From Candidatus Binatia bacterium (lineage in GTDB: Bacteria; Desulfobacterota; Binatia; DP-6), in assembly GCA_036009625.1 (NCBI GenBank), contig DASYLJ010000090.1, forward strand, positions 4,590 through 68,589: 64,000 nucleotides of DNA, read 5' to 3'. The position numbers and the translations under genes were made by a program. Shown here piece after piece: positions 19,720 to 37,130 of this stretch (its first letter is position 1; every line of letters begins with the position of its first letter). A model generated the notes under the pieces. The model had not been told where the DNA came from and ran no database searches. It saw nothing but the letters and a program-made list of their open reading frames with translations.

Positions 19720-20892
19720 TCAGCGGGACTTCGGCATGCCGAGGCCGCCCATCGCGATGATGTCGCGCTGGATCTCGTTGGTGCCGGCGCCAAAGGTCAT
19801 GATGAGAATGGCGCGATACATGCGTTCGAGACGGCCCTGCAGCCGCGCCTCGGGCGATCCGGCCTTCACCGCACCGGCCTGCCCGAGAATCTCGAGCAAC
19901 AGGCGGTAGGCCTCGACGTAGAACTCGCTGCCGAACACCTTCACGGTGGACGACTCGGCGTAGTTCATCTCGCCGCGGCTCATGCTCCACGCCTGACGCC
20001 AGTTGAGGAGCTTCAGCACCTCGAGCTTGGCGTGCACGTGGGCCAGGTTGCGCTGCACCCAGTGCTGGTCGATGACGCGCTGTCCGTTCGGCAGCTTCGT
20101 CGCCGCCGCCCAGTCGCGCGTCTCCTGGTAGTAGCGATCCGTCGGGCCGTACGGGATCAGCGACACGCGCTCGTGGTTCAGCTGGCCCACGATGAGCCAC
20201 CAGCCGCCGTTCTCGGGGCCGATCAGGTGATCGGCGGGGACGCGCACGTCCTCGAAGAAGGTGGCGTTGGTGGTGACGTCGCCCATCGTCGGCAGCGGCG
20301 AGATCTTGTAGCCCGGTGACGACGTCGGGACCATGAAGATCGAGATGCCGTCGTGCTTCTTGGCGGTGGGATCGGTGCGTGCCGCGAGCCAGATGAAGTC
20401 GGCGTACTGCGCCTGGCTGGTGTAGAGCTTGGCGCCGTTGATGACCCACTGATCGCCGTCACGAACGGCGCGCGTGCGCAGCGACGCCAGGTCGGTGCCG
20501 GCACCCGCCTCGGTGTAACCGATTGCGAAGTGGACGTCGCCGTGGAGCGCTTTCGGCAGGAAGCGCTGCTTCTGCTCCTCGGTGCCGTACTGCATGAGCA
20601 TCGGGCTCACCGACATGATGGTGAGCGTCGGCAGCACGATGTTCGCGCGCCACGCCTCGTCGAAGAAGATGAACTGTTCGATCGGCGTGCGACCCTGGCC
20701 GCCGTATTCTTTGGGCCAGCCCACGCCGAGCCACCCGTCGGCGCCCATCTTCTTGAGCGCCTTCATGTACTCCGGCCCGCCGCCCTCGGTGACGGCGATC
20801 TCGGCCTCGTACGCGGGCGTCACGATGCCGCGAAAATATTCGCGAATCTGGTCGCGGAGCGCCTTGTGCTCCGGGAGGAGATCGATGTGCAT
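19720..20892 (-). CDS. acyl-CoA dehydrogenase family protein
   Basis: MHIDLLPEHKALRDQIREYF...GYTEAGAGTDLASL...FGAGTNEIQRDIIA. Lies directly upstream of the second ACAD gene. Confidence 0.85.
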   Translation of the reverse strand: MHIDLLPEHKALRDQIREYFRGIVTPAYEAEIAVTEGGGPEYMKALKKMGADGWLGVGWPKEYGGQGRTPIEQFIFFDEAWRANIVLPTLTIMSVSPMLMQYGTEEQKQRFLPKALHGDVHFAIGYTEAGAGTDLASLRTRAVRDGDQWVINGAKLYTSQAQYADFIWLAARTDPTAKKHDGISIFMVPTSSPGYKISPLPTMGDVTTNATFFEDVRVPADHLIGPENGGWWLIVGQLNHERVSLIPYGPTDRYYQETRDWAAATKLPNGQRVIDQHWVQRNLAHVHAKLEVLKLLNWRQAWSMSRGEMNYAESSTVKVFGSEFYVEAYRLLLEILGQAGAVKAGSPEARLQGRLERMYRAILIMTFGAGTNEIQRDIIAMGGLGMPKSR

Positions 20893-20958
20893 GCGGCGGA
20901 GTGATACGCGGTCGCGGGCGCGACAGTCAAACGACCGTTTGGGGGCGCCGGAGCGTGC

Positions 20959-22119
20959 TCAGAGCAGTCGTCTGGAGGCGAGATCGGCGCCTTCGCGCAG
21001 CGCTTTCAGCTTGGCCCACACCACTTCCTCGGCGACTTCGCCGAGGCCGGCGGCAGTGGCGAAGCCGCAGTCGGTGCCGGCGATCACACGACGCGGGTCG
21101 CCGATCGCCTGCGCGGCGCGCTCGAGGCGGTCGGCAACCACTTCGGGATGCTCGACGTAGTTCGTGGTGGTGTCGATCACGCCCGCGATCAGCAGCCAGC
21201 TCGCCGGCAGTGGGTGCTTCGCGATGGTGCGCCACTCGTGCTCGTGACGCGGGTTCGCCATCGACAGCACGACGCCGCCGACGCGCGCGTGCACGAGGTG
21301 CGGCAGCAGGATGTCGAGCGGCACGTCGCAGTCGTGCGGCCCCTCGTAGTTGCCCCAGCACACGTGCAGCCGGACGCGATCGGGCGGGATGCGCGCCAGC
21401 GCGCGGTTCATCGCACGGATCACGAGGTCGACGAAGGTGAGGAAGTCCTCGATGGGACGGTCGGCGAACAACGTGTGCCGTTCCATCGCCAGGTCGGGGC
21501 AGTCGATCTGCAGGATGAAACCCTGCGCGACGATGGCGGCGTACTCGTGCCGCAGCGCCTCGGCCAGCGCCACGACGTATTCCTCGAACGTCGGGTAGTG
21601 CGCGTTCTCCATCGCGCACGCGACGATGCCCGGCGACGGCGCGGTCATGAACGACTCGGAGAACGACCGCCCGACGTCGGCCAGCACGCGGCGGTAGACG
21701 TCGGCGTCGCGCTCGACGGCCGTCGGATCGGTATAGTGCACGGGGCCGGTCGCACGCGGCGCGCGCATCAGGCTCACCATGTCGCGCGCGAAGTCGGGCA
21801 GTCGCTGCGTCAGGAACGTCGGGTAGCGCACGATGTCGCGCATGATGGGACGGCTGCTCTCGCCGGCGAAGCCACTCATGCGGTGCTGCAGGTAGGTGAA
21901 GAAGCTCTCGCGCGGATGCTCGCCGTCGTTGCCGACGTCGATGCCGGCGTCGAGCTGGCTCTCGACGACGCGGCGCGTGGAGGCCGCGATGGCGGCGGCC
22001 AGCTCGGCGGCGTCGACCGGCTCGTTCCGGCTGCGGCGCACGAAGAGTGCATTCAGCTCCGGCGAGCGTGGCAGGCTGCCGGCGTGGGTGGTCAGGATGC
22101 GCGACGTGCTGGCGAGCAT
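20959..22119 (-). CDS. cobalamin-independent methionine synthase (MetE C-terminal domain)-like family protein
   Basis: THAGSLPRS...QIDCPDLA...HVCWGNYEG...TDCGF is the Zn-ligand pattern of the MetE-like / UROD-like family. Confidence 0.65.
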   Translation of the reverse strand: MLASTSRILTTHAGSLPRSPELNALFVRRSRNEPVDAAELAAAIAASTRRVVESQLDAGIDVGNDGEHPRESFFTYLQHRMSGFAGESSRPIMRDIVRYPTFLTQRLPDFARDMVSLMRAPRATGPVHYTDPTAVERDADVYRRVLADVGRSFSESFMTAPSPGIVACAMENAHYPTFEEYVVALAEALRHEYAAIVAQGFILQIDCPDLAMERHTLFADRPIEDFLTFVDLVIRAMNRALARIPPDRVRLHVCWGNYEGPHDCDVPLDILLPHLVHARVGGVVLSMANPRHEHEWRTIAKHPLPASWLLIAGVIDTTTNYVEHPEVVADRLERAAQAIGDPRRVIAGTDCGFATAAGLGEVAEEVVWAKLKALREGADLASRRLL

Positions 22120-22168
22120 GGGGGTGCTTTACGCCCGTCCGTTCCCCCTGACCAGTGCGTCCTCCAGG

Positions 22169-23854
22169 TCAGCGCGTGAGCAGCATGCAGCCGGCCACCG
22201 GTCCACCGCCGTTCGCGACCACGGCGACCTCGCAATCGGGTACCTGCCGCGCGCCGCACTCGCCACGCAGCTGACGGATGGCCTCGGCGAGGAATCCGAA
22301 CCCATGCAGACGCCCGCCCGAGAGCTGGCCACCCCACGTGTTCGACGGCAGGGCGCCACCCAGCTCGAGGCGACCGCCCTCGACGAACGGCCCGCTCTCG
22401 CCGCGGCCACAGAAGCCGAGCGCTTCGAGCCACGACAGCGTCAGGAAGCTGAAGCCGTCGTAGAGCTGCGCGGTGTCGACGTCGGCGGGCGTCAGGTCGG
22501 TGCGCGACCACAGCTGCGCGCCGGCGTCGCGCGACGACATGGACGTGAGATCCTCCCACTGGTCCCAGCTCGGACGCGAGCGCATCGCCGTGCCGACCGC
22601 GTTCACGTGCACCGCCGGCTTCGGCAGATCGCGCGCGACGTCACGATGCGACACGATGACCGCCGTCGAGCCGTCGCACGGGGCGTCGCAGTCGTAGAGG
22701 CTGAAGGGCCAGCTCACCATGCGCACCGCGAGGTAGTCGTCGAGCGTCATCGGCTCGCGATAGACCGCATCGGGATTCAGCGCCGCGTGCTTGCGCCCCG
22801 CCAACGCCACCGCCCCGAGGTGCTCGCGGCGCGTGCCGAACTCGTGCATGTGGCGCACGCAGTTCATCGCCAGCCAGTTCGCCGCCGACATCGCGCCGTA
22901 CGGGATGAGGTAGGCGCCGAACCCGCCGATCTCGCGCGACCCGGCGCCGATGCCACGCCGTCCGTGGCCAGCCGCGGCCGACGCCTCGCTCACGGTGCGA
23001 TAGACGAGGACGTGCCGCGCCAGCCCCGCCGCCACCGCGAGGGACGCCGCGATCACGGGCGCGATCTGCGCCGCCCCCTCCGGCCCCGCCTGATGCCAGC
23101 TCACCGACAGGCCGAGCGCGTCCTGCACGTCGACGATGCTCGGTCCCGAGAACCCTGGTGGTGCGCCGCCCATGAACCCTGGGTAGGAGGCGATGCCGTC
23201 GATGTCGTCGGGCGTGAGCCCGGCGTCGGCGATGGCGCGCAGCGCCGCCTCGGCGGTGAGGTCCATGTCGGTGCGGAAGAGCCTCCGGCCGATCTGCGAC
23301 TGCCCGACACCCGACAGGATCGCTCGTCGCTCCAGGCGTTCCTCGGGCAGGATGTGTCGCGGCGGCCGCGACAGCACGACGTCGGTGTCGGTGGCCTTGG
23401 GCGGGGTTGCCGGCGTCGTACGCAACGCGGCGGCGTCGCGCGGCGCCGGGTCGGGCTCGAACATCGGCAGCGAGATCTCGTCGTTGACCTTCTGGAAGAC
23501 GACGCGCACCGGCATGCCGATCTGCACCGCGTCGACGGCACAGCCGACGATGTTCGTCATGAGGCGCAGGTTCGGCTGCTCGACCAGCTCGACGATGGCG
23601 ATGACGTACGGCACTTCCAGCCCCGGCATCCAGCGCTGGTGGTTCACCGTGTACGTCGCCACGGTGGCGAGTCCCGACAGGTCCTCGGGTGCGACGTCGC
23701 GGCTGCGACAGCGCGAGCACACCGGTCGTGACGGATGGATGATCCAGCGACACGCGCGACAGCGCGTCATCGCGAGGCGTCCCTCGCGACACGCCGTCCA
23801 GTAGGCTTCGCTGTCGGGCTCGATGGCGGGGAGCGGGGCGAAGGGATGGTCCAT
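22169..23854 (-). CDS. fusion protein: N-terminal DUF35 (Zn-ribbon + OB fold) and C-terminal thiolase-like (SCP-x/Ltp type) domain
   Basis: ATG at 23854. Zn ribbon CRACRWIIHPSRPVCSRCRS. OB fold GLATVATYTVNHQ...VIAIVEL. After a Pro/Ala linker comes a thiolase-like domain (ILSGVGQSQIGRR...). I see no obvious nucleophile Cys. Confidence 0.65.
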   Translation of the reverse strand: MDHPFAPLPAIEPDSEAYWTACREGRLAMTRCRACRWIIHPSRPVCSRCRSRDVAPEDLSGLATVATYTVNHQRWMPGLEVPYVIAIVELVEQPNLRLMTNIVGCAVDAVQIGMPVRVVFQKVNDEISLPMFEPDPAPRDAAALRTTPATPPKATDTDVVLSRPPRHILPEERLERRAILSGVGQSQIGRRLFRTDMDLTAEAALRAIADAGLTPDDIDGIASYPGFMGGAPPGFSGPSIVDVQDALGLSVSWHQAGPEGAAQIAPVIAASLAVAAGLARHVLVYRTVSEASAAAGHGRRGIGAGSREIGGFGAYLIPYGAMSAANWLAMNCVRHMHEFGTRREHLGAVALAGRKHAALNPDAVYREPMTLDDYLAVRMVSWPFSLYDCDAPCDGSTAVIVSHRDVARDLPKPAVHVNAVGTAMRSRPSWDQWEDLTSMSSRDAGAQLWSRTDLTPADVDTAQLYDGFSFLTLSWLEALGFCGRGESGPFVEGGRLELGGALPSNTWGGQLSGGRLHGFGFLAEAIRQLRGECGARQVPDCEVAVVANGGGPVAGCMLLTR

Positions 23855-23899
23855 GGCGACGCGGTTATTCCGCGCCTGGCGCGCTCCGCGCAACCTCGC

Positions 23900-26967: not shown

Positions 26968-26996
26968 CTTAGACCGGCCGCCGTGCGGGCTGTCAA
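26968..26996 (-). promoter_or_regulatory. possible sigma70-type promoter for queD (TTGACA-17 nt-TCTAAG), implying a near-leaderless transcript
   Basis: The minus strand reads TTGACA (26996..26991), a 17-nt spacer, then TCTAAG (26973..26968). The queD ATG lies 9 nt downstream. The -10 element is weak. Confidence 0.25.
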
Positions 26997-27072
26997 TGCT
27001 CGGCGCGGGTCGGGATCACCCCCGACACGACGATGGACACCCGACCTGGTTCGCTGCGCCCGGCGGATTCGA

Positions 27073-27081
27073 ATCACTACG
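27073..27081 (+). repeat. 9-bp direct repeat ATCACTACG, left copy, flanking the low-GC segment
   Basis: Identical 9-mer at 27073-27081 and 28001-28009. It is AT-rich relative to the host sequence. Confidence 0.4.
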
Positions 27082-27203
27082 TGGAGTAACGCCCGCTTCC
27101 CGGGGACACTCAACTCAGCCGGCACAACAGAAACCAAGACTACCGTCCAGCGAACCGCTTCCCTTGACTGCCCAAGTCGGCTCACGGTAGCACGCAGGCA
27201 CCG

Positions 27204-27992
27204 ATGCACTTGCCCAACGGCTCCCTTCCCTCGCGCGCACCGACCTCGCCACAACTGATCCCCTCGATTGAGGACGGCCGTTTCCAACCGAGCTTCACGA
27301 GGTTCATCGAGACAGTGCTGACGGTGCTCGCCCTCGCAGTCGTTCCTGCCTGTGGCACCGCACCGTTGGCCCCAGGTCTTGGACCGATTGGCGTTGTGCC
27401 TTTCTCCACCGATCCGAGCGCACTGGCGATCAGTCGCTACGAGGGCGACACGGCACAGCTCGGGTCTCTGCTCGCCACCCAAGCGGTCACGTTCTTGAAG
27501 CGGAGGGATCGCGATGCCCAAGTCGCGCCGCAGGATAGCCCAATCGATAGCGGCACTATCGTTTCCGGGCGAATCACGAGACTGGACGGCGGAAATCGAG
27601 CTCTACGCGCCCTTGTCGGCTTCGGAGCGGGCGGTTCGACTTGCGCGGCTGATGGCACCGTCAGTCGCGCCGACGGAACTCGAATTGGGACATTCGCCCT
27701 CGAGAGGAAGCGCAAAGGTACCGGATTCTTCTGGGTTCGGTTCGGAGAGAGTGCGGAGCTTCAGCTCCAGAAATGTGTTGAAAGCCTGGGAAACGGCATC
27801 GGCCAACTCGTCGACCAAGGGAAGTGGACACCTGCGCCGGCAGCAGTTTCACCGACGCTCAGTCAGCCTGCACCGCCATCACAACGAACTACCCAGGACA
27901 GGCTGGTGGAGCTGGATGAGCTGAAGTCACGTGGTCTGATCACCGACCGTGAGTATGAGGAGAAGCGCAAGCGAATCCTCGAGGAGTTCTGA
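27204..27992 (+). CDS. lipoprotein with a C-terminal SHOCT domain (central part DUF4410-like)
   Basis: Lipobox LALAVVPAC. C-terminal RLVELDELKSRGLITDREYEEKRKRILEEF is a SHOCT-type helix pair. GC content and third-position GC are clearly lower than in neighbouring genes. The start is uncertain: the ATG at 27204 puts 50 aa before the lipobox Cys, and the in-frame GTG at 27315 is an alternative. Confidence 0.6.
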   Translation: MHLPNGSLPSRAPTSPQLIPSIEDGRFQPSFTRFIETVLTVLALAVVPACGTAPLAPGLGPIGVVPFSTDPSALAISRYEGDTAQLGSLLATQAVTFLKRRDRDAQVAPQDSPIDSGTIVSGRITRLDGGNRALRALVGFGAGGSTCAADGTVSRADGTRIGTFALERKRKGTGFFWVRFGESAELQLQKCVESLGNGIGQLVDQGKWTPAPAAVSPTLSQPAPPSQRTTQDRLVELDELKSRGLITDREYEEKRKRILEEF

Positions 27993-28000
27993 AGCTCTCC

Positions 28001-28009
28001 ATCACTACG
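28001..28009 (+). repeat. 9-bp direct repeat ATCACTACG, right copy
   Basis: Lies 8 nt after the TGA of the SHOCT lipoprotein gene. Identical to 27073-27081. Confidence 0.4.
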
Positions 28010-28052
28010 CTCGACAAGCCGTTCCTCACGTCCGCCGAAGCCGCGCGACTAG

Positions 28053-28901
28053 TCACCCAAACAGCGCCCGCAGCACGAGGCGCGCGAAGTCGCCGCGTCT
28101 GAGCGTCGGGCGCTGCGCGAAGACGTCGCCGTCCACGGCGTCGATGCGGTCGAGGATCGCCATGCCGCCGCGGGCGAAGAGGCGCACCTCACGACGCAGG
28201 CGTCCCGTCACCATGGACGCGAGCGGCAGGCCGCGTTCGAAGAGTGCCCGCGCGCGCGCCACCTCGAAGCGCAGCAGCTCGCGGAAACCGGGCGTCACCC
28301 GGCGCGACGCCAGCGCGTCGCGGCTGCCGGCGAAGCGATCGAGATCGTCCTGCGGCAGGTAGACGCGGCCACGGTCGAGATCGCCGGCGACGTCCTGCCA
28401 GCAGTTCGTCAGCTGCAGCGCAGTGCAGATGTCGTCGGAGCGCGCCTGGCGCTCGGTGTCGTGGTGACCGAAGAGGCCGAGGACGATGCGCCCCACCGGA
28501 TTCGCCGAGCAGCGGCAGTAGTCGTAGAGCGCATCGATCGTGGCCATGCCGGCGGTCTCACCGGCAGCGTCGCGACGGAACGCCGTGATCAGATCGCGAA
28601 ACGGCTGCACCGGCAGACGGTGCGCCGTGAGGGTGTGGCTCAGCGCCACGAAGATGGGATCGTCGACCGACGTCGGATCGCCGGCACACGCGAGCAGCTT
28701 CGCCTCGAACTCGTCGAGCCGGTCGAGACGACCGACGTCGCTGCCCTCGTCGGCGAGGTCGTCGCCGGCGCGCGCAAAGGCATAGACGGCGGCGAGGTCG
28801 CGCCGCAGGTGCCGCGGCAGCAGCCACGAGCCGATGGGGAAGTTCTCGTAGTGCGCACGCGCGATGCGCGCGCACTCGGCGTACGCCTGCTCGATCTCCA
28901 C
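28053..28901 (-). CDS. hpnC: squalene/phytoene synthase family protein, HpnC type (hydroxysqualene synthase-like)
   Basis: The GTG at 28901 lies 2 nt after the upstream TGA. AHYENFPIGSWLLP is an HpnC-type N-terminal motif. Both Asp-rich motifs are present (DDLAD, DVAGD). 282 aa. Confidence 0.75.
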   Translation of the reverse strand: MEIEQAYAECARIARAHYENFPIGSWLLPRHLRRDLAAVYAFARAGDDLADEGSDVGRLDRLDEFEAKLLACAGDPTSVDDPIFVALSHTLTAHRLPVQPFRDLITAFRRDAAGETAGMATIDALYDYCRCSANPVGRIVLGLFGHHDTERQARSDDICTALQLTNCWQDVAGDLDRGRVYLPQDDLDRFAGSRDALASRRVTPGFRELLRFEVARARALFERGLPLASMVTGRLRREVRLFARGGMAILDRIDAVDGDVFAQRPTLRRGDFARLVLRALFG

Positions 28902-28903
28902 GC

Positions 28904-29968
28904 TCAGGCCACCCGTCGATGGGTGCCGTCGGCGCCGCACACGAAGTCGCCGGCGAAGCCCTCGGGCGGCGCCGTGCGCCGGCAGAGCGCGTCGTACTCG
29001 GCCGGCGTCACCGCGACGCGCGGCCCCGACGCCACGCCCGCCTCGCTCCCGGCTCGACCCGACACCAGCGCCGTGAACAGCTCGGCGCTCCCACCGCCCG
29101 CGGCGAAGCACCCCACGCGACGACCGGAGAGGATGCGGCCCTCGGCCTCGAGCAGTGCGGCCAATGCCAGGCCGAGTGACGCCGCGCCGGTGTCACCGGC
29201 ATGGCACGCGACGGCGAGCGCCGGATCGACCTGCTCGACGGTGGCCGCCGCGAGCGCTTCGGCGAGGCGCGCTTCGACGTCGGACCAACGCCGCTCGTTC
29301 GCCCGCCAGTCGCGCTCGATCACCCGGCGATGTGCATCGCGCGCGGCGTCCGGGCTCGAGGCGGCATAGACGACGCGGGCCAGGCGGTCCGTCAGCGCTT
29401 CCGTTCCCTCGGGCTCGGGACGCTCCCGCGACCGCCACGCGAGGAACGCACCCTCGAGCGCCGCGGCGTCGGCTGCGCCGGTCCAGGCCACGGCATCGTC
29501 GGCGAAGACGACGGCACGCGGCTCGGTGCCGACGAGCATCGCGACCGCGCCCGCACCCATCGGGCGCGAGCCGTCGACGCGGACGTCGGCAGCGACCACC
29601 AGCGCGCGCCGTGCGCGCATGCCGCCGGCGCGTACCCAGTCGGCCGCCGTCGACAGCGCCGCCGTGCCGGCACACCACGGATGGCGCACGTCGAGCAGGC
29701 GGCAGCGGGCGCCGAGGCCCGTGAGCTCGTGCACGACGGGGCTCACGGGTGCGGCGGCGTTGGTGGCCACCAGCAGCAGGCCGACGTCACCCGGATCGGT
29801 GTCGTCCGCACGCAGCAACCGCGCCGCGGCGGTCGCGGCCATGGTGATGGTGTTCTCGCCCGGCACCGCGAGCGCGACCTCGATGGTGCCACCAGCGGAC
29901 GCCGGGTCGGCGAGCGGCAGGCGATGCGCGGGAACGTAGGCGTGCAGGCGTTCGACGCCAACGCTCAT
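28904..29968 (-). CDS. HMG-CoA synthase-like (thiolase-fold) protein, divergent
   Basis: The ATG at 29968 forms an ATGA overlap with the cyclase stop. It aligns by eye to bacterial MvaS over ALVVAADV....GAGAVAMLVGTEPR and over the Cys region (HPWCAGTAAL). It is shorter (354 aa), and other catalytic positions appear substituted. Confidence 0.55.
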   Translation of the reverse strand: MSVGVERLHAYVPAHRLPLADPASAGGTIEVALAVPGENTITMAATAAARLLRADDTDPGDVGLLLVATNAAAPVSPVVHELTGLGARCRLLDVRHPWCAGTAALSTAADWVRAGGMRARRALVVAADVRVDGSRPMGAGAVAMLVGTEPRAVVFADDAVAWTGAADAAALEGAFLAWRSRERPEPEGTEALTDRLARVVYAASSPDAARDAHRRVIERDWRANERRWSDVEARLAEALAAATVEQVDPALAVACHAGDTGAASLGLALAALLEAEGRILSGRRVGCFAAGGGSAELFTALVSGRAGSEAGVASGPRVAVTPAEYDALCRRTAPPEGFAGDFVCGADGTHRRVA

Positions 29969-31890
29969 GCCATCGTCGTCCGCGCGCGATACTGCCCGAG
30001 GGCCCGCAGCGGGAAGTGCAGCGGATACAGGTGGTAGCGCAGGTAGCTGCGGCGGGGGACACCGGTGCCGGTGTAGGCACGCTCGTTCCACCCGCCGTCG
30101 TCACGCTGCGTGCCGACGAGATGCGCGATGCCGCGCCGCACCGCCTCGCTCTCCGCACCGTCGACTGCCATCAAGGCGAGCAGCGCCCAGGCCGTCTGCG
30201 TCGGCGTGCTGTCGCCTCGACCGATCTGCTCGGCGTCGTCGTACGACGCCGGCGACTCGCCCCAGCCGCCGTCCGCGTTCTGGTGCGCGCAGAGCCACTC
30301 GACGGCGGAGCGTATCCACGGCGACTGCAGATCGGCGTCGGCGTTGGCGAGGCCGGTGAGCGCCAGGCTCGTGCCGTAGAGCGCGTTGACACCCCACCGT
30401 CCGCGCCAGCTGCCGTCGGGCTGCTGCTCGCGACGCAGGAACTCGACCGCGCGGCGCACGCGACCGAACTCGGGCCCGAAGCCGGTGGCGCCCATCAGCC
30501 CGAGCACGCGACCCGTCGAATCGGGGTTCGGTGGATCGGTGAGCCCTTCGAGATCGGGGAACGGCACCGCGTCGAGGAAGCGCGCCGGTCCGTGGTTGTC
30601 GAACGCCGCCCAGCCGCCGTCACGGTGCTGCATGCCGAGGGTCCAGTTGCTGCCGTGCGCGAGCGCACGACGACCCGCCGCCGTCGCCGCCTGCGGCAGT
30701 CGGCCCAGCGCCAGCAGCGTCTCGGCCGAGACGTCGATGTTGGGATACGAATCGTTCGCGAGCTCGACCGCCCAGCCACCGGGATCCAGCTGCGGATTGC
30801 GCACCGACCAGTCGCCGGGACGGAAGATCTGCCGCGACACGAGCCAGTCGCCCGCGCGCACCAGCGCCGGGGTGGCGGGATCGACACCAGCATCAAGCAG
30901 CGCCTGTACCGCCAGCGCCGTGTCCCAGTTGGGCGACGTGCACGGCTGGTGCAGCAGCTCGTCACCCTGCTGCAGCAGCAGATCGTCGATGCCTTGGAGG
31001 CCGCGCACCATGACGGGATGGTCGAGCGCGAAGCCCACGGCGTGCAGGGCGAGCACCGAGTGCACCATCGCCGGCTGGATGCCGCCCCACTGTCCGGTGG
31101 CGTCCTGACGACGCAGGATCCACTCGATGGCGCGTGCCACCGCGCGCCGGCGGAGCGGCTTCCACGGCACGCGCCCGAGCAGCCCGAGCGCACGATCGAG
31201 GCCGAGGAACGCGTTGCGCCAGGTGAGGACGCGACGCGAGCGCGCGAACGACAGGGCGTCGGCGGTGGGCTCGCGTACCCAGAGCTCGGGGACGCCGGCG
31301 CCGAACGGCACGCGCGCCGCCGGGCGATGCACGCCCAACAGCGCGAACGGCACCAACACCGAGCGCGCCCAGCTCGAGAACGCGTAGATGCCGAGCGGCG
31401 ACCATGGCGGCAGCAGCACGACCTCGATCGGCATCGCCGGCACGCCCTGCCACGGGAACTGTCCGAAGCACGCGAGCCAGAAGCGCGCGTAGAGCCCCGC
31501 ACGCGCGAGCCCGCCCTGCGCCAGGATGAAGTCGCGCCCGCGCAGCATGGCGGGATGATCACCGGCCAACCCGGTGAGCTTCAGCGCGAAGTAGACCTCG
31601 ATGCTGGTGGACAGGTGGCCAGGGAGGCCCGTGGCCAGCGACCAGCCACCGTCCTCCTGCTGCAGGCGCAGCAGACGATCGACGAGGCGCGCTTCCAGCT
31701 CGGGGCGCTTTCGTCCGAGCAGGCGGTTCAGGAATATCCACTCGGCCTCGAGGTTGCCCGCAGCTTCGACCGGCGCCTGCCAGTAGCCGCTCGACTGCTG
31801 TTCCGTGAGCAGACGCTCGGTGGCGCGCGCGACCGCACCGGCCACCGCGTCCACGACCCCCACCCCTGCCGTCGGTTGCTGCAACGTCAC
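29965..31890 (-). CDS. squalene-hopene cyclase family (class II triterpene cyclase) protein with a non-canonical active-site motif
   Basis: GTG start at 31890 forms a GTGA overlap with the mvk stop. It can be aligned by eye along its full length to Alicyclobacillus SHC (QW repeats, GGIQP, GRWGVN.LYGT, TPTQTAWALLAL). The DxDD motif position reads NIDVSAE. Confidence 0.8.
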   Translation of the reverse strand: MTLQQPTAGVGVVDAVAGAVARATERLLTEQQSSGYWQAPVEAAGNLEAEWIFLNRLLGRKRPELEARLVDRLLRLQQEDGGWSLATGLPGHLSTSIEVYFALKLTGLAGDHPAMLRGRDFILAQGGLARAGLYARFWLACFGQFPWQGVPAMPIEVVLLPPWSPLGIYAFSSWARSVLVPFALLGVHRPAARVPFGAGVPELWVREPTADALSFARSRRVLTWRNAFLGLDRALGLLGRVPWKPLRRRAVARAIEWILRRQDATGQWGGIQPAMVHSVLALHAVGFALDHPVMVRGLQGIDDLLLQQGDELLHQPCTSPNWDTALAVQALLDAGVDPATPALVRAGDWLVSRQIFRPGDWSVRNPQLDPGGWAVELANDSYPNIDVSAETLLALGRLPQAATAAGRRALAHGSNWTLGMQHRDGGWAAFDNHGPARFLDAVPFPDLEGLTDPPNPDSTGRVLGLMGATGFGPEFGRVRRAVEFLRREQQPDGSWRGRWGVNALYGTSLALTGLANADADLQSPWIRSAVEWLCAHQNADGGWGESPASYDDAEQIGRGDSTPTQTAWALLALMAVDGAESEAVRRGIAHLVGTQRDDGGWNERAYTGTGVPRRSYLRYHLYPLHFPLRALGQYRARTTMA

Positions 31891-32806
31891 GACCTCTCCT
31901 CCGTGCCACTTCCGACCCTGACGATCAACGTCTCCACGCCGCCGCGCCGCAGCATGGCGGCGACGGTCTCCGGGTCGTCGGCGAGGGCGATGACCGCGCC
32001 GCCGGCCCCGCCGCCGGTGAGCTTCGCCCCGAGCGCACCGGCGCTGCGCGCGGCGGCAACGAGCGCGTCGGTCGACGGCGACGACACGCCGAGCGCGGCG
32101 AGCAGCGTCTGGTTGTCGTCGAAGGCGCGCCCGAGCGCCGCGAGATCACCCACAGCGGCCGCGGCGGCGCCACGCTCGACCACGGCCGTGACGTCGTCGA
32201 AGAGCGCCTCGTGGCGCGCACGATCGTGCTCCCAGCGCTCGCGCAGACCACCCACCGCGGCGCCGGTGCTGCGCGCCTGCGAACCGAACGCCACCACCAA
32301 CGGCAGCGCACGCGCGGTGCGCAGCGGCGTCACCACGGGCGGGTCACCGCGCACGAACCGGAAGCAGGTGCCGAGCGCCGCCGCCGCCGGATCGATACCC
32401 GACGGCGTGCCGTGGAAGATGGCCTCGAGCCGCCGCCCGACGGCGAGCTCCTCGGCGGTGTCGAGCGTGCGCCCCGCGGCGGCGGAGAGTGCGCGCAACG
32501 TCGCCACCGCGAGCGCTGCCGAGCTCCCGAGCCCGCGTCCCGCCGGCAGCTCCGAGCGCACCCGCACGACGACACGCGATGGGTCGAGGCCGACGATCGC
32601 CGCCGCCTCGGCGACGAGTCGCGCCGGCCGCGCATCGTCCGGCGGGAGGGGATGATCGCTCACGAGGGCCGGGCCGGCACCGTCCTCGACGACGGCCTCG
32701 AGCCCGATCGGCAGACCGGCGGCGATGGCCGGTCGGCCGTAGACGACGACGTGCTCTCCGAGGAGGATGATCTTCCCGCCGGCGTGACCGCGCGCGGGAC
32801 GACGCA

Positions 32807-32807
<1 letters not shown>
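31887..32807 (-). CDS. mvk: mevalonate kinase
   Basis: The ATG at 32807 overlaps the HMGR TGA by 1 nt. GKIILLGEHVVVYG and the GHMP ATP motif PAGRGLGSSAA are present. Confidence 0.8.
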
Positions 32808-34079
<1,272 letters not shown>

Positions 34080-34087
<8 letters not shown>

Positions 34088-35153
34088 GCGCCTCCTCCAA
34101 GAATGACCCGGGCGTGATCCAATCGCGCAGCCGGCGCCCCAGCACAAGGGGAGCGCGTGACAAAGCCTGTACGTCGCGCGAGCCGGTGAGTACCATCGCC
34201 GTCCGCAGCTCGTCCACGAGCTGCTCGACGTAGCGGCTGGCGCCGTCGACGCCCCCGGCCTTCAGGGCCCGGAAGACGGGGAGTGCGACACCGGCCACCC
34301 GGGCCCCGAGGGCCAGCGCCTTGGCGACGTCGAGCCCGCTGCGGATGCCGCCGCTGGCCATGCAGTCGAACCCGAGGCCGCGGAGGCCGAGGAGCGCCGC
34401 CGCGGTCGGAATCCCCCACTCGGCGAAGGTGTCGCCGAGCGCGCGTTGCGCCTCGTCGGCCCGCAACGCCTCGACCCGCACCCAGGACGTGCCGCCCGCA
34501 CCCGAGACGTCGACGGTGTGCACGCCGGCGGCGCGCAGCCGCTCGCCGACCGCGCGCGACACGCCGCAGCCGGTCTCCTTCGCCACCACCGGCACCGGCA
34601 GCTCGCGCACGAGGCGGCGGAAGGTGTCGAGGCCGCCACGGAAGTCGCGGTCGCCGCCGGGCTGCACCAACTCCTGGGCGGCATTCATGTGGACGCAGAG
34701 GGCATCGGCACCGACGGCCCGCACCAGCGCCACGATGTCGGCCGACGGCATCGACGCGGCCTGCACGACGCCGAGGTTGGCGAGCACGAGCGTGGTGGGC
34801 GCGTGGGTGCGCACCTCGAACGTGTAGCCGAGGCCGGGCTCGCGGTGCATCGCGCGCTGCGAGCCGAGGCCGAACGCGATGCCGTGCGCCTCGGCCACCT
34901 GCGCCAGCGACTGGTTGATGTCGGCGGCCTCGTCGGTGCCACCCGTCATGCCGGTGATGACGAGCGGCGCGCGCAGGCGCTTCCCGAGCAGCGTCGTCGC
35001 GACGTCGACCTCGTCCACCGCCAGCTCGGGGAGGGCGTCATGCACCAGCTCGACCTCTTCGAGCAGCGTGGTCTTGCCGGTGTACTCGACGGGGCCGGTC
35101 GCACAGTGGTCGAGGTGGGAGCGCTTGCGCTCGCTGATGGTGCCCTCAGCCAA
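34080..35153 (-). CDS. fni: type 2 isopentenyl-diphosphate delta-isomerase (FMN-dependent)
   Basis: RKRSHLD...PLVITGMTGG...ETGCG...SGAGGTSW...ASGGIRSGLDVAKALALGA. Confidence 0.85.
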
Positions 35154-36096
35154 CGGTCACACCCTCGTCGGCGATCACCACGTCGAGCGGCACGATGCCG
35201 ACCTCTTCCCAGGCGGCGCGGACCGCGGCGGCCTGCGTCGTCGACGTCGCCAGCGCGATGCCGCAGTCGCCCGCACCCGCACCCGACGGCTTCGCCGCCG
35301 CACCGACGCGATTCGCCGCGCGTACGAGCGTCGACAGCGCGGGCGTGACGATGGGCAGGTCGAGCTCGGTGCCGAATCGCGCCAGCAACGCCGCCGAACG
35401 ATCGACGGCATCGAGCAGCGTCGCGGCGTCGCCGCGCGCCACCGCCTCGGCCGCACGCACCGCGACCGCGAACAGCTCGGCGAACGACGCCGGCGCCGTG
35501 ACGGTCGCGAAGCGCGTCAGCAACGGCGTCGTGTGCGCGGACGTGCCCGTCCAGCCGGCGAGCAGGTGGAGCCCGACGGGCAGCGTGCGGCGCTCGACCG
35601 CGAGCGCCGGCTCGGCGCGACGCGCCTCGACGACGCCGCCGTACACCGCGGCCGCGATGTCGGCACCGCTGCCCTGCCCGGCCTGGAAGAGCGCATTCGC
35701 CGCCAACGCCGCGTCGAGGATGGCGCGCGCCGCCGCCGCTGGCTGCAGGGCCGCGGTCGCCGCCACGAGCGTGGCGGCGCTCCGACCGAGCCCGAGCTTG
35801 CGATCGCCGACGAGAAAGGAACGCGAGTCGACGACGACGTGCAGCGGCGTACGGATGCCGAGCGTGCGCGCGACGGCGAGCACGGTGCCGGCGTCGCCGA
35901 GCGGCAGCGGCGCATCGACGTCGAGCCGCGTGGTCCGTCCTTCGGCGAGCGACTCGACGACCACGCCGCGATCGCCGGCGTCCACGGTCACCACGGCGTG
36001 CCGATCGACGGCGGCGACCAGCGCCGGCGCGCCACGCAGCACCGCCCACTCGCCGGTGATGAAGAGCTTGCCGGGCGCGTGCGCGGTGACGCTCAC
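35146..36096 (-). CDS. phosphomevalonate kinase (GHMP, ERG8 type)
   Basis: The GTG at 36096 forms a GTGA overlap with the decarboxylase stop. APGKLFITGEWAVLRG and GHMP motif KLGLGRSAA. Confidence 0.7.
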   Translation of the reverse strand: MSVTAHAPGKLFITGEWAVLRGAPALVAAVDRHAVVTVDAGDRGVVVESLAEGRTTRLDVDAPLPLGDAGTVLAVARTLGIRTPLHVVVDSRSFLVGDRKLGLGRSAATLVAATAALQPAAAARAILDAALAANALFQAGQGSGADIAAAVYGGVVEARRAEPALAVERRTLPVGLHLLAGWTGTSAHTTPLLTRFATVTAPASFAELFAVAVRAAEAVARGDAATLLDAVDRSAALLARFGTELDLPIVTPALSTLVRAANRVGAAAKPSGAGAGDCGIALATSTTQAAAVRAAWEEVGIVPLDVVIADEGVTVG

Positions 36097-37130
36097 GCCA
36101 CCACCTCGGCGCCGATCCCGGGCGCACAGGTGATGACCCGCACGACGCCCGGCACGGCACCGAGCGCCTCCGCGACGCGGGGCGCATCGTTGGCCGTGCA
36201 CAGCGCCTTCACCTGCGGACCGGCGTCGATGGTGATCCAAGCGGGGACGCCATCGGCGCGCAGCGCCCACACGCGATGGATGCAGTCGACGGTGGCACCG
36301 CGCCAGTAGAGCAGCGGCGGTCGCGCGGCGAGCCCGATGGCGTGCATCTTGAGCGCGCTGTGCTCGGCGAGCTGACCGAGCGCCTCGAGGTCACGGGCGC
36401 GGATGGCGGCGCGCGCCTCGGCGAGATCGGCCTCGGCGCCCGCCACCCATGCAGGATAGAGCGGTGACGCGGCCGCGCGCGCCATGCCGTCGCGCGACGA
36501 CACGCTCTTCGGCGCCGTGGTGGTGACGGCGACCACCACGCGCACGTCGCTCCACGCGGTGGCATCGAGCAGTGGCTCGGCAATGGAATCGGCGCCGTCG
36601 GCGCGCTCGCCGCGATGCCACTCGACGAAGCCGCCGAAGATGCTGCGCGCCGCGGAGCCGGAGCCGCGTCGTGCCAGCGCCGACAGTGCCGGCGGATCGA
36701 GATGGAGACCCGCCGCCTGCGAGCCCGCCACCGCCAGCGCCGCGAACGCCGCCGCCGACGACGCCAGGCCGACGCCGCGCGGGACGTGGCTGCGCGTCAC
36801 CACCGACACCGGCTCGCGCCGTCCGGACTCCTGGCGCAGTAGATCGACGAAGCGCGCCAGCCGGGTCCGCTCCTCGCCGGCGGCCGGGGCCTCGTCGATC
36901 TCGAAGCGGTCCTCGTCGGTGGCGGCGAAGGCCACGCGGGCATCGATGGAGAGGCCGTCGAGGGTGATCGAGATGCTGCCGGTGGCGGGAAGGTTCAGCT
37001 CGGGATCGCGTTTGCCCCAGTACTTGACCAGGGCGACGTTCACGTTGCTGCGGGCAGTGGCCTCGGACCTGGTCATCGCGACGGCGCCGGTTCTAACCTT
37101 TTCGGTCGGCCGACGCACGGCCCCCATCAT
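36093..37130 (-). CDS. mvaD: diphosphomevalonate decarboxylase
   Basis: NVALVKYWGKRD...GLASSAAAFAAL. The start is either the ATG at 37130 (ATGA overlap with the upstream gene) or the ATG at 37076 (MTRSEATARSNVNVALVKYWGK). Confidence 0.8.
   Translation of the reverse strand: MMGAVRRPTEKVRTGAVAMTRSEATARSNVNVALVKYWGKRDPELNLPATGSISITLDGLSIDARVAFAATDEDRFEIDEAPAAGEERTRLARFVDLLRQESGRREPVSVVTRSHVPRGVGLASSAAAFAALAVAGSQAAGLHLDPPALSALARRGSGSAARSIFGGFVEWHRGERADGADSIAEPLLDATAWSDVRVVVAVTTTAPKSVSSRDGMARAAASPLYPAWVAGAEADLAEARAAIRARDLEALGQLAEHSALKMHAIGLAARPPLLYWRGATVDCIHRVWALRADGVPAWITIDAGPQVKALCTANDAPRVAEALGAVPGVVRVITCAPGIGAEVVA

Follow-up and report, generated by a model that had tools for sequence, protein, structure and literature searches.

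Can a squalene-hopene cyclase (SHC) homolog that has lost two of the three aspartates of its proton-donor motif still be an ordinary hopene cyclase? The question is raised by a minus-strand gene in a 64,000-nucleotide stretch of DNA from an uncultured Candidatus Binatia bacterium (contig DASYLJ010000090.1; this whole stretch is referred to below as the window), which encodes an SHC-family protein with N-I-D-V-S-A-E in place of the DxDD(TAV) motif. Our analysis indicates that the window cyclase is probably a repurposed enzyme or a non-catalytic relative of SHC, and not an ordinary hopene cyclase. The motif observation is solid and the evolutionary setting of the variant clade is clear; an altered substrate or initiation chemistry, as proposed in the first-pass annotation of this DNA, is a reasonable hypothesis on the sequence evidence.

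The DxDD motif is replaced in a full-length cyclase

Translation of positions 30508..30741 on the minus strand gives NIDVSAETLLAL...DSTGR, i.e., NIDVSAE...DSTGR, in which the motif is encoded by AAC ATC GAC GTC TCG GCC GAG (30741..30721) and the central Asp386 by the GAC codon at 30735..30733. HMMER aligned residues 15 to 636 of the window cyclase near-completely with residues 10 to 626 of the Alicyclobacillus acidocaldarius SHC (AaSHC; 1gsz; E=7.7e-151), pairing N384 with D374, I385 with V375, D386 with D376, V387 with D377, S388 with T378, A389 with A379, E390 with V380, and R461 with H451. The motif columns were identical in a MAFFT alignment of the window cyclase and 120 homologs, so the two methods agree on the first-pass reading that the central Asp alone is kept. 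A canonical DxDD displaced by a few residues was looked for, and none was found near the motif in either alignment, both of which are ungapped there. The MAFFT alignment further showed V375, V611, and S615 at the positions of F365, F601, and F605.

Of the features that mark an SHC, the window cyclase thus lacks the DxDD proton-donor motif (D374, D376, and D377) and the aromatics that serve later carbocations (F365, F601, and F605), and it has the double alpha/alpha-barrel beta-gamma fold with QW repeats and a sufficient hidden Markov model score: it reached 663 bits on the NCBIfam hopene cyclase equivalog TIGR01507 (cutoff, 431), it was matched by both Pfam SQHop_cyclase_N and SQHop_cyclase_C, and it carries five Q-x-GGW (QW-type) repeats. 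It is 42% identical to AaSHC and 62% identical to the syntenic canonical Binatia SHC. AlphaFold2 (AF2) predicted the fold with a pTM of 0.81, and Foldseek gave a TM score of 0.86 to 3SQC; in the model, the fold is intact. The oxidosqualene cyclase (OSC) signature VxDCTAE with its Cys partner is absent, the window cyclase reading I-D-V-S-A-E with Val in the place of Cys, and neither the OSC model TIGR03463 (274 bits; cutoff, 851) nor the squalene-tetrahymanol cyclase model TIGR04277 (165 bits; cutoff, 500) reached its cutoff. These scores, and the nesting of the cyclase inside the Binatia SHCs described below, do not support the earlier reading of the motif as intermediate between SHC and OSC.

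A monophyletic clade of variants within the Binatia SHCs

Among the 120 best database matches, about 93 had a canonical motif (DVDDSAV or DTDDTAV), and 23 clusters, defined at 90% identity, had x-[VIT]-D-V-S-A-x, most commonly NVDVSAL. These variants are monophyletic (100/100 neighbor-joining bootstraps) and nested within the Candidatus Binatia SHCs, and all 23 clusters contain full-length open reading frames (ORFs) of ~641 to 652 amino acids, down to ~59% identity. A profile built from the 23 clusters scored variants at 1167 bits or more versus 1024 or less for canonical proteins; a search with this profile found no further full-length clade members. The motif is not an assembly error: independent assemblies share it, with NVDVSAE found both in an NCBI metagenome-assembled genome (MAG) and in a Logan SRA assembly and NVDVSAA in a JGI contig, and across the 23 clusters of the clade the codons vary synonymously at D386 (GAC/GAT), V387 (GTC/GTG), and A389.

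Asp386 is kept in 19/23 clusters. Across the clade, N, S, R, and G occur at the D374 position and A, V, F, L, or G at the F365 position; the F601 position is V or I in 22/23 clusters, and the F605 position is S, A, T, or V in 23/23. D374, D377, F365, F601, and F605 are kept in 93/93 canonical relatives. The wider sampling also changed two earlier interpretations. The motif had been described as lying "between" those of SHC and OSC on account of its trailing Glu, a residue that is present in only two of the 23 clusters and is L, A, V, or Q elsewhere. Likewise, R461 had been read as a changed partner of D376, but Arg is found at this position in 93/93 canonical, DxDD-bearing Binatia SHCs. Like R461, E376 (in place of Q366) and F430 (in place of Y420) are found in every canonical Binatia SHC, and by this comparison none of the three is connected with the motif loss. 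The textbook D376:H451 pair is accordingly D:R in canonical Binatia SHCs (for example, L085, 10001-11962).

Two other Binatia SHC homologs outside the 23-cluster clade, P0084 (DVPTSAA) and P0098 (SVPGSAM), also lack DxDD and sit on long branches. P0098 was placed within the canonical clade and P0084 is the immediate sister of the variant clade, which suggests that DxDD loss is recurrent in Binatia SHCs. We searched the literature for a DxDD-less SHC clade and for Binatia hopanoids and found no description of the variant clade. A recent large cyclase phylogeny discarded sequences without an aligned DxD (PMC12414744), and the variant clade therefore lies outside it.

The variant cyclase is under purifying selection

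By the NG86 method, the dN/dS of the cyclase was 0.095 between the window and its 94% relative L001 and 0.19 to 0.22 between the window and L006, versus 0.16 to 0.17 for the neighboring MK, 0.11 to 0.13 for HpnC, and 0.15 to 0.19 for IDI2. The variant cyclase is thus under purifying selection comparable to that on its neighbors, and its dN was 1.0 to 1.7 times that of the canonical paralog over the same genome pairs (four genomes). With the full-length ORF, the five QW-type repeats, and the predicted TM score to 3SQC, these ratios (0.10 to 0.22) bear out the earlier view that the gene is not decayed.

To describe what has changed in the protein, we took the 233 columns that are at least 95% identical among 95 canonical Binatia SHCs. 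The variant clade keeps 155 of them; 16 have acquired a new conserved residue (L36V, N39A, M42L, V174L, D377V, I432V, 435P, E446A, 493A, F601V, and others), and 34 have become variable (W312, F365, D374, V380, V381, the 451 position, Y495, G600, F605, Y609, Y612, and others). In the AaSHC structures, the changed positions map to the acid site, to the constriction of the channel (F166/V174/F434/C435), and to the wall and bottom of the cavity. Judged from the alignment, channel-gate residues (V174L and 435 to Pro) and cavity-bottom residues are altered in the variant clade.

The cyclase occupies the SHC slot of a mevalonate operon

The window operon runs, on the minus strand, MVD-PMK-IDI2-HMGR-MK-cyclase-HMGS-like-HpnC, followed by a 1.1-kb insert and PTPS (Table 1). 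At both ends the cyclase gene overlaps its neighbor, its start with the mevalonate kinase stop (GTGA) and its stop with the HMGS-like start (ATGA). The canonical Binatia operon is MVD-PMK-IDI2-HMGR-MK-SHC(DVDDSAV)-HMGS-HpnC-HpnD-HpnE (L085 and L086). Because the wider synteny of the window matches that of both canonical loci (UvrD-DUF6600-amidase-methyltransferase...mevalonate operon...PTPS), the window cyclase, by gene order, occupies the ancestral SHC slot.

Table 1. Coordinates of the variant cyclase, its altered positions, and the surrounding operon in the window
Feature	Coordinates	Strand	Remarks
Upstream mevalonate-pathway genes	31887..37076	(-)	Same operon as cyclase
MVD	36096-37076	(-)	
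PMK-like	35149-36096	(-)	
Type-2 IDI	34083-35153	(-)	
HMG-CoA reductase	32810-34087	(-)	
Mevalonate kinase	31887-32807	(-)	
Variant SHC-family cyclase, coding sequence	29965..31890	(-)	641 aa, GTG start, stop counted
V375 codon	30766..30768	(-)	Aligned with AaSHC F365 (cavity aromatic)
N384-I-D386-V387-S-A-E390	30721..30741	(-)	Replaces DxDD(TAV) motif
R461 codon (CGC)	30508..30510	(-)	Aligned with AaSHC H451
V611...S615	30046..30060	(-)	Aligned with AaSHC F601 and F605
Degenerate HMG-CoA synthase paralog (HMGS')	28904..29968	(-)	354 aa
HpnC	28053..28901	(-)	Presqualene diphosphate to hydroxysqualene; well conserved, 73% identical to canonical-locus HpnC

In the HMGS-like gene, HMGS', TET has given way to N and a 4-residue deletion, with loss of the catalytic Glu; Ala stands in for the catalytic His, the Cys is kept, and ~22 further residues are deleted. 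It scored 69 bits on TIGR01835, versus 347 for the canonical neighbor, and its dN/dS was 0.25 to 0.40; from its residues, HMGS' is predicted to be catalytically dead.

No hpnD or hpnE remnants were found by tblastn in the window or in the variant loci. Their canonical place is taken by the 1.1-kb gap between PTPS and HpnC (26968-28053), which has a GC content of 60 to 64% versus ~72% and holds a plus-strand ORF (27204-27992) with DUF4410 and SHOCT domains, unrelated to hpnD/hpnE; in L001, the corresponding gap is only 47 bp.

An Rfam scan gave no match near the cyclase gene. Elsewhere in the window, it identified a ZMP/ZTP riboswitch (RF01750; 61185-61268, minus strand; 58 bits; gathering score, 39); directly downstream of it is an operon on the same strand that encodes a class-V aminotransferase, phosphoglycerate dehydrogenase, and adenylosuccinate synthetase. 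A conserved minus-strand block at 19720-23899, downstream of a GAF hybrid histidine kinase, encodes a DUF35-type domain (zf-ChsH2 plus OB) fused to a thiolase-like domain, a protein of 389 aa matched faintly by Meth_synt_2, and an acyl-CoA dehydrogenase. This block may supply the mevalonate pathway with an archaeal-style thiolase partner, or it may be a module for degrading lipid or steroid side chains.

Related genomes carry a second hopanoid cluster

Variant and canonical SHCs coexist in four related genomes. In the P0005 genome, the canonical SHC lies ~110 kb from the variant on a 1.94-Mb contig (L097/L170); in the MAG with a 94% ortholog of the window cyclase, it is on another contig (L171); in the MAG with an 84% ortholog, it is ~75 kb off on the same contig (L172); and the P0079 contig likewise bears one (L208). 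The coexisting canonical copies have DTDD or DVDD and a complete set of cavity aromatics. They are found in a second cluster with the order thiolase-EVE-HMGR-SHC-HMGS-HpnD-HpnE-HpnH, in which HpnH (radical SAM plus DUF3463) adjoins the canonical SHC, not the variant, in the closest genomes (L171, L172, and L170); no hpnH was found in the 64-kb window. The second cluster has its own HMGR, giving two HMGR copies per genome (L170, L171, L172, and L208).

The coexisting canonical paralogs belong to another SHC subclade than the one from which the variant derives (83/100 bootstraps). The phylogeny and gene content fit the arrival of a second hopanoid cassette that left the native SHC-HMGS pair redundant, and we infer from the relatives that the window's own genome also has this second cluster, beyond the 64 kb.

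Wherever HpnC lies beside the variant, the canonical cluster has no copy, and HpnC is in the canonical cluster of L208, where the variant locus is without it; in each genome, the two loci examined contain one copy between them. Because of this complementary presence, HpnC is one shared pathway copy, and we rejected its proximity as an argument that it is a dedicated partner supplying hydroxysqualene to the variant. In the P0079 genome, HMGR was called at a length of 190 aa and PMK was not called in the mevalonate operon beside the variant (L087, 74-5290), which reflects either real decay or long-read frameshift errors.

Derived members are linked to a cytochrome P450

Early-branching members, including the window lineage and L244, retain cyclase-HMGS'-HpnC. 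The derived subclade has the order cyclase-(HpnC)-P450-nitroreductase in 7/7 loci examined, the genes being at most 30 bp apart or overlapping. The P450 of the derived loci matched Mycobacterium tuberculosis CYP124, a methyl-branched-lipid omega-hydroxylase, with E=1.4e-146, and homologs of this P450 at 75% identity or less in other genomes have neither a cyclase nor a nitroreductase adjacent. PNP_UDP_1 genes near the derived variants were considered as HpnG and dismissed, as they scored only 26 to 32 bits on the model versus a cutoff of 187.

Comparison with known cyclases

The window cyclase resembles canonical SHCs (AaSHC; TIGR01507; P0029 and P0023) in its two-domain fold, QW repeats, and length and shares its operon slot with the canonical Binatia enzymes. 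It keeps D376, D313, D447, W169, W312, W489, Y495, Y609, Y612, Q262, E45, and E93. It differs from them in having NxDV for DxDD, in the substitutions F365V, F601V, and F605S, in the gate (V174L and 435 to Pro) and bottom helix (L36V, N39A, and M42L), and in that the variant is a second copy beside a canonical SHC.

Class II cyclization with fewer than three aspartates has precedents in the reduced-acid cyclases MstE (DxD) and pleuromutilin cyclase (DxDM), although these belong to other subfamilies, act on meroterpenoid substrates or GGPP, keep the first Asp, and are not squalene-type triterpene cyclases. The window cyclase is like OSCs in having x-[ST]-A-E after a lone catalytic Asp, but it has no Cys after this Asp, falls below the OSC cutoff, and nests in the Binatia SHCs. 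By analogy with OSCs and with SHC-clade enzymes active on oxidosqualene only, it may prefer a more easily protonated substrate; the latter enzymes, however, keep DxD[D] (PMC12414744).

Engineered enzymes offer direct precedents. AaSHC D377C converts squalene to monocyclic 3-deoxyachilleol with strongly reduced activity, and BmeTC D373C behaves alike (PMC6127371); the oxidosqualene-only triple mutant D377C/V380E/V381A is described, in a passage of PMC9634032 citing Dang & Prestwich 2000, as converting 2,3-oxidosqualene to mono- and pentacyclic products. D377 is also neutralized in the window cyclase (D377V), the central Asp is the sole acid retained, and, as in the triple mutant, position 380 is Glu and position 381 is changed (to Thr). 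Unlike these mutants, the window cyclase, a putative enzyme, is natural and under selection, and it adds D374N and the loss of three cavity Phe residues; E390, the counterpart of V380E, is not conserved in the variant clade.

Weighing the explanations

The reading that we favor, with confidence somewhat short of even, is that the variant is a repurposed, weak-acid, short-cascade class II triterpene cyclase. Under this reading, the second hopanoid cassette would have freed the native SHC-HMGS pair in the mevalonate operon. The operon copy of the cyclase has lost D374, D377, F365, F601, and F605 and changed its gate and cavity-bottom residues, the adjacent HMGS copy is without the catalytic Glu and His, and HpnD and HpnE have vanished from the locus. 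Asp386 would still be the general acid, but a weaker one without the Asp pair that enhances its acidity, and the cation cascade would halt early for want of the aromatics stabilizing later carbocations. Squalene or, more readily, oxygen-activated squalene (an epoxide or allylic alcohol) would be converted not to hopene but to a triterpenoid of one or two rings that carries a long isoprenoid tail. In derived members, the CYP124-like P450 and the nitroreductase-family flavoprotein may oxidize the tail or preactivate the substrate, and the window lineage would represent an earlier stage, without a P450 beside the cyclase. In favor of a repurposed cyclase are the purifying selection on the gene, a pattern of change that is targeted and not random, the monophyly of the clade with Asp386 kept in 19/23 clusters, the intact predicted fold, the engineered precedents at the corresponding residues, and the P450 pairing in the derived subclade. 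A more committed version, that the clade consists of active DxDD-less triterpene cyclases using the single Asp on oxygen-activated squalene (a P450-made terminal epoxide or allylic alcohol, or HpnC-derived hydroxysqualene) or stopping after one or two rings on squalene, we regard as tentative and rather doubtful.

Several observations weigh against a repurposed cyclase. The Asp386 position is R or G in one subclade (P0056, P0072, and P0079) and E in one member, and P0079 has an intact ORF and a P450 neighbor without the acid Asp; the gene can therefore be retained without it. Half of the cavity positions are variable, with no fixed new state, as would also be seen if the active site were dead and the constraint on it relaxed. 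The co-duplicated HMGS' is without its catalytic residues and was deleted in derived lineages, so loss of function did occur in this block. D377C is already slow, and by analogy D374N on top of it should further hamper protonation of a plain alkene. No P450 or epoxidase was found in the 64-kb window, the P450-cyclase linkage elsewhere could be inherited synteny, and the AF2 model, with pLDDT below 50 over residues 355 to 382 just before the motif, is uninformative about the cavity top.

Much of this would be expected of a pseudoenzyme, which would perform no cyclization and be kept to bind squalene, hydroxysqualene, or hopanoids, to anchor or regulate mevalonate or HpnC enzymes at the membrane, or to partner the active SHC. 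The loss of two of the three DxDD aspartates and, in 3/23 clusters, of the central one (with Glu in one more), in ORFs that stay intact, is in line with such a role, as are the variability of many former cavity residues (W312, Y495, Y609, Y612, and F365), the dead HMGS', and the coverage of hopanoid synthesis by a canonical SHC with HpnH in the same genomes; a dN/dS of 0.1 to 0.2 means that some function was kept, of whatever kind. A pseudoenzyme would have lost every residue indispensable for catalysis while selection maintained its fold; the window cyclase has lost the helper aspartates and kept the general acid D386, and only the subclade of P0056, P0072, and P0079 has lost the acid itself. 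Yet Asp386 persists in 19/23 clusters, its codon varying synonymously, whereas the neighboring D374 position has shifted among four residues, gate and cavity positions were fixed anew (V174L, 435P, D377V, and F601V/I) rather than randomized, a lipid-oxidizing P450 is tightly operonic in the derived subclade, and our literature search turned up no catalytically dead SHC homolog. We consider a pseudoenzyme the main rival reading, possible but, on balance, less probable than not.

That the gene is a slowly decaying redundant duplicate, the native SHC having become dispensable after the second cluster's arrival, would account for the disappearance of HpnD and HpnE without remnants, the degeneration and later deletion of HMGS', the independent DxDD losses in P0084 and P0098, and the longer branches of the variants. 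This is unlikely because of the selection data: dN/dS is well below 1 and near that of the canonical paralog, all 23 clusters are full length at identities down to ~59%, 155/233 canonical-invariant columns are kept, and the true pattern of decay (deletions, higher dN/dS, and gene loss) is seen in HMGS' instead. An ordinary hopene cyclase whose motif is unusual but still works would agree with the score above the equivalog cutoff, the ancestral SHC slot, and the nearby HpnC, but it is very improbable because of the residue data, since all five of D374, D377, F365, F601, and F605 are replaced and D377C alone, in the engineered enzyme, halts at one ring; related genomes, moreover, already have a canonical SHC beside HpnH.

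Significance

Being above the NCBIfam equivalog cutoff, the variant would be labeled "squalene--hopene cyclase" by annotation pipelines, and gene-based surveys of hopanoid producers would miscount it. DxDD-less clades are moreover systematically unseen where sequences without an aligned DxD are removed, as in the phylogeny of PMC12414744. The locus documents the fate of a native SHC-HMGS pair freed by a second cassette, in which the HMGS decayed and the cyclase was retained.

If the variant is inactive, it may be the first SHC-family pseudoenzyme on record to be maintained by selection, as we found no earlier report of one. If it is active, it would show natural retuning of acid strength and cascade length in a triterpene cyclase, could provide a natural equivalent of the engineered D377C monocyclase, a slow enzyme used in making ambrein, and would yield new bacterial triterpenoid skeletons relevant to lipid biomarkers. 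Should the DxDD-less active-cyclase reading be true, the Binatia would gain a previously unrecognized class of mono- and bicyclic triterpenoid lipids and a candidate natural 3-deoxyachilleol/achilleol-type synthase and, in members with the P450, a way into class II cyclization that depends on the P450 and needs no epoxidase.

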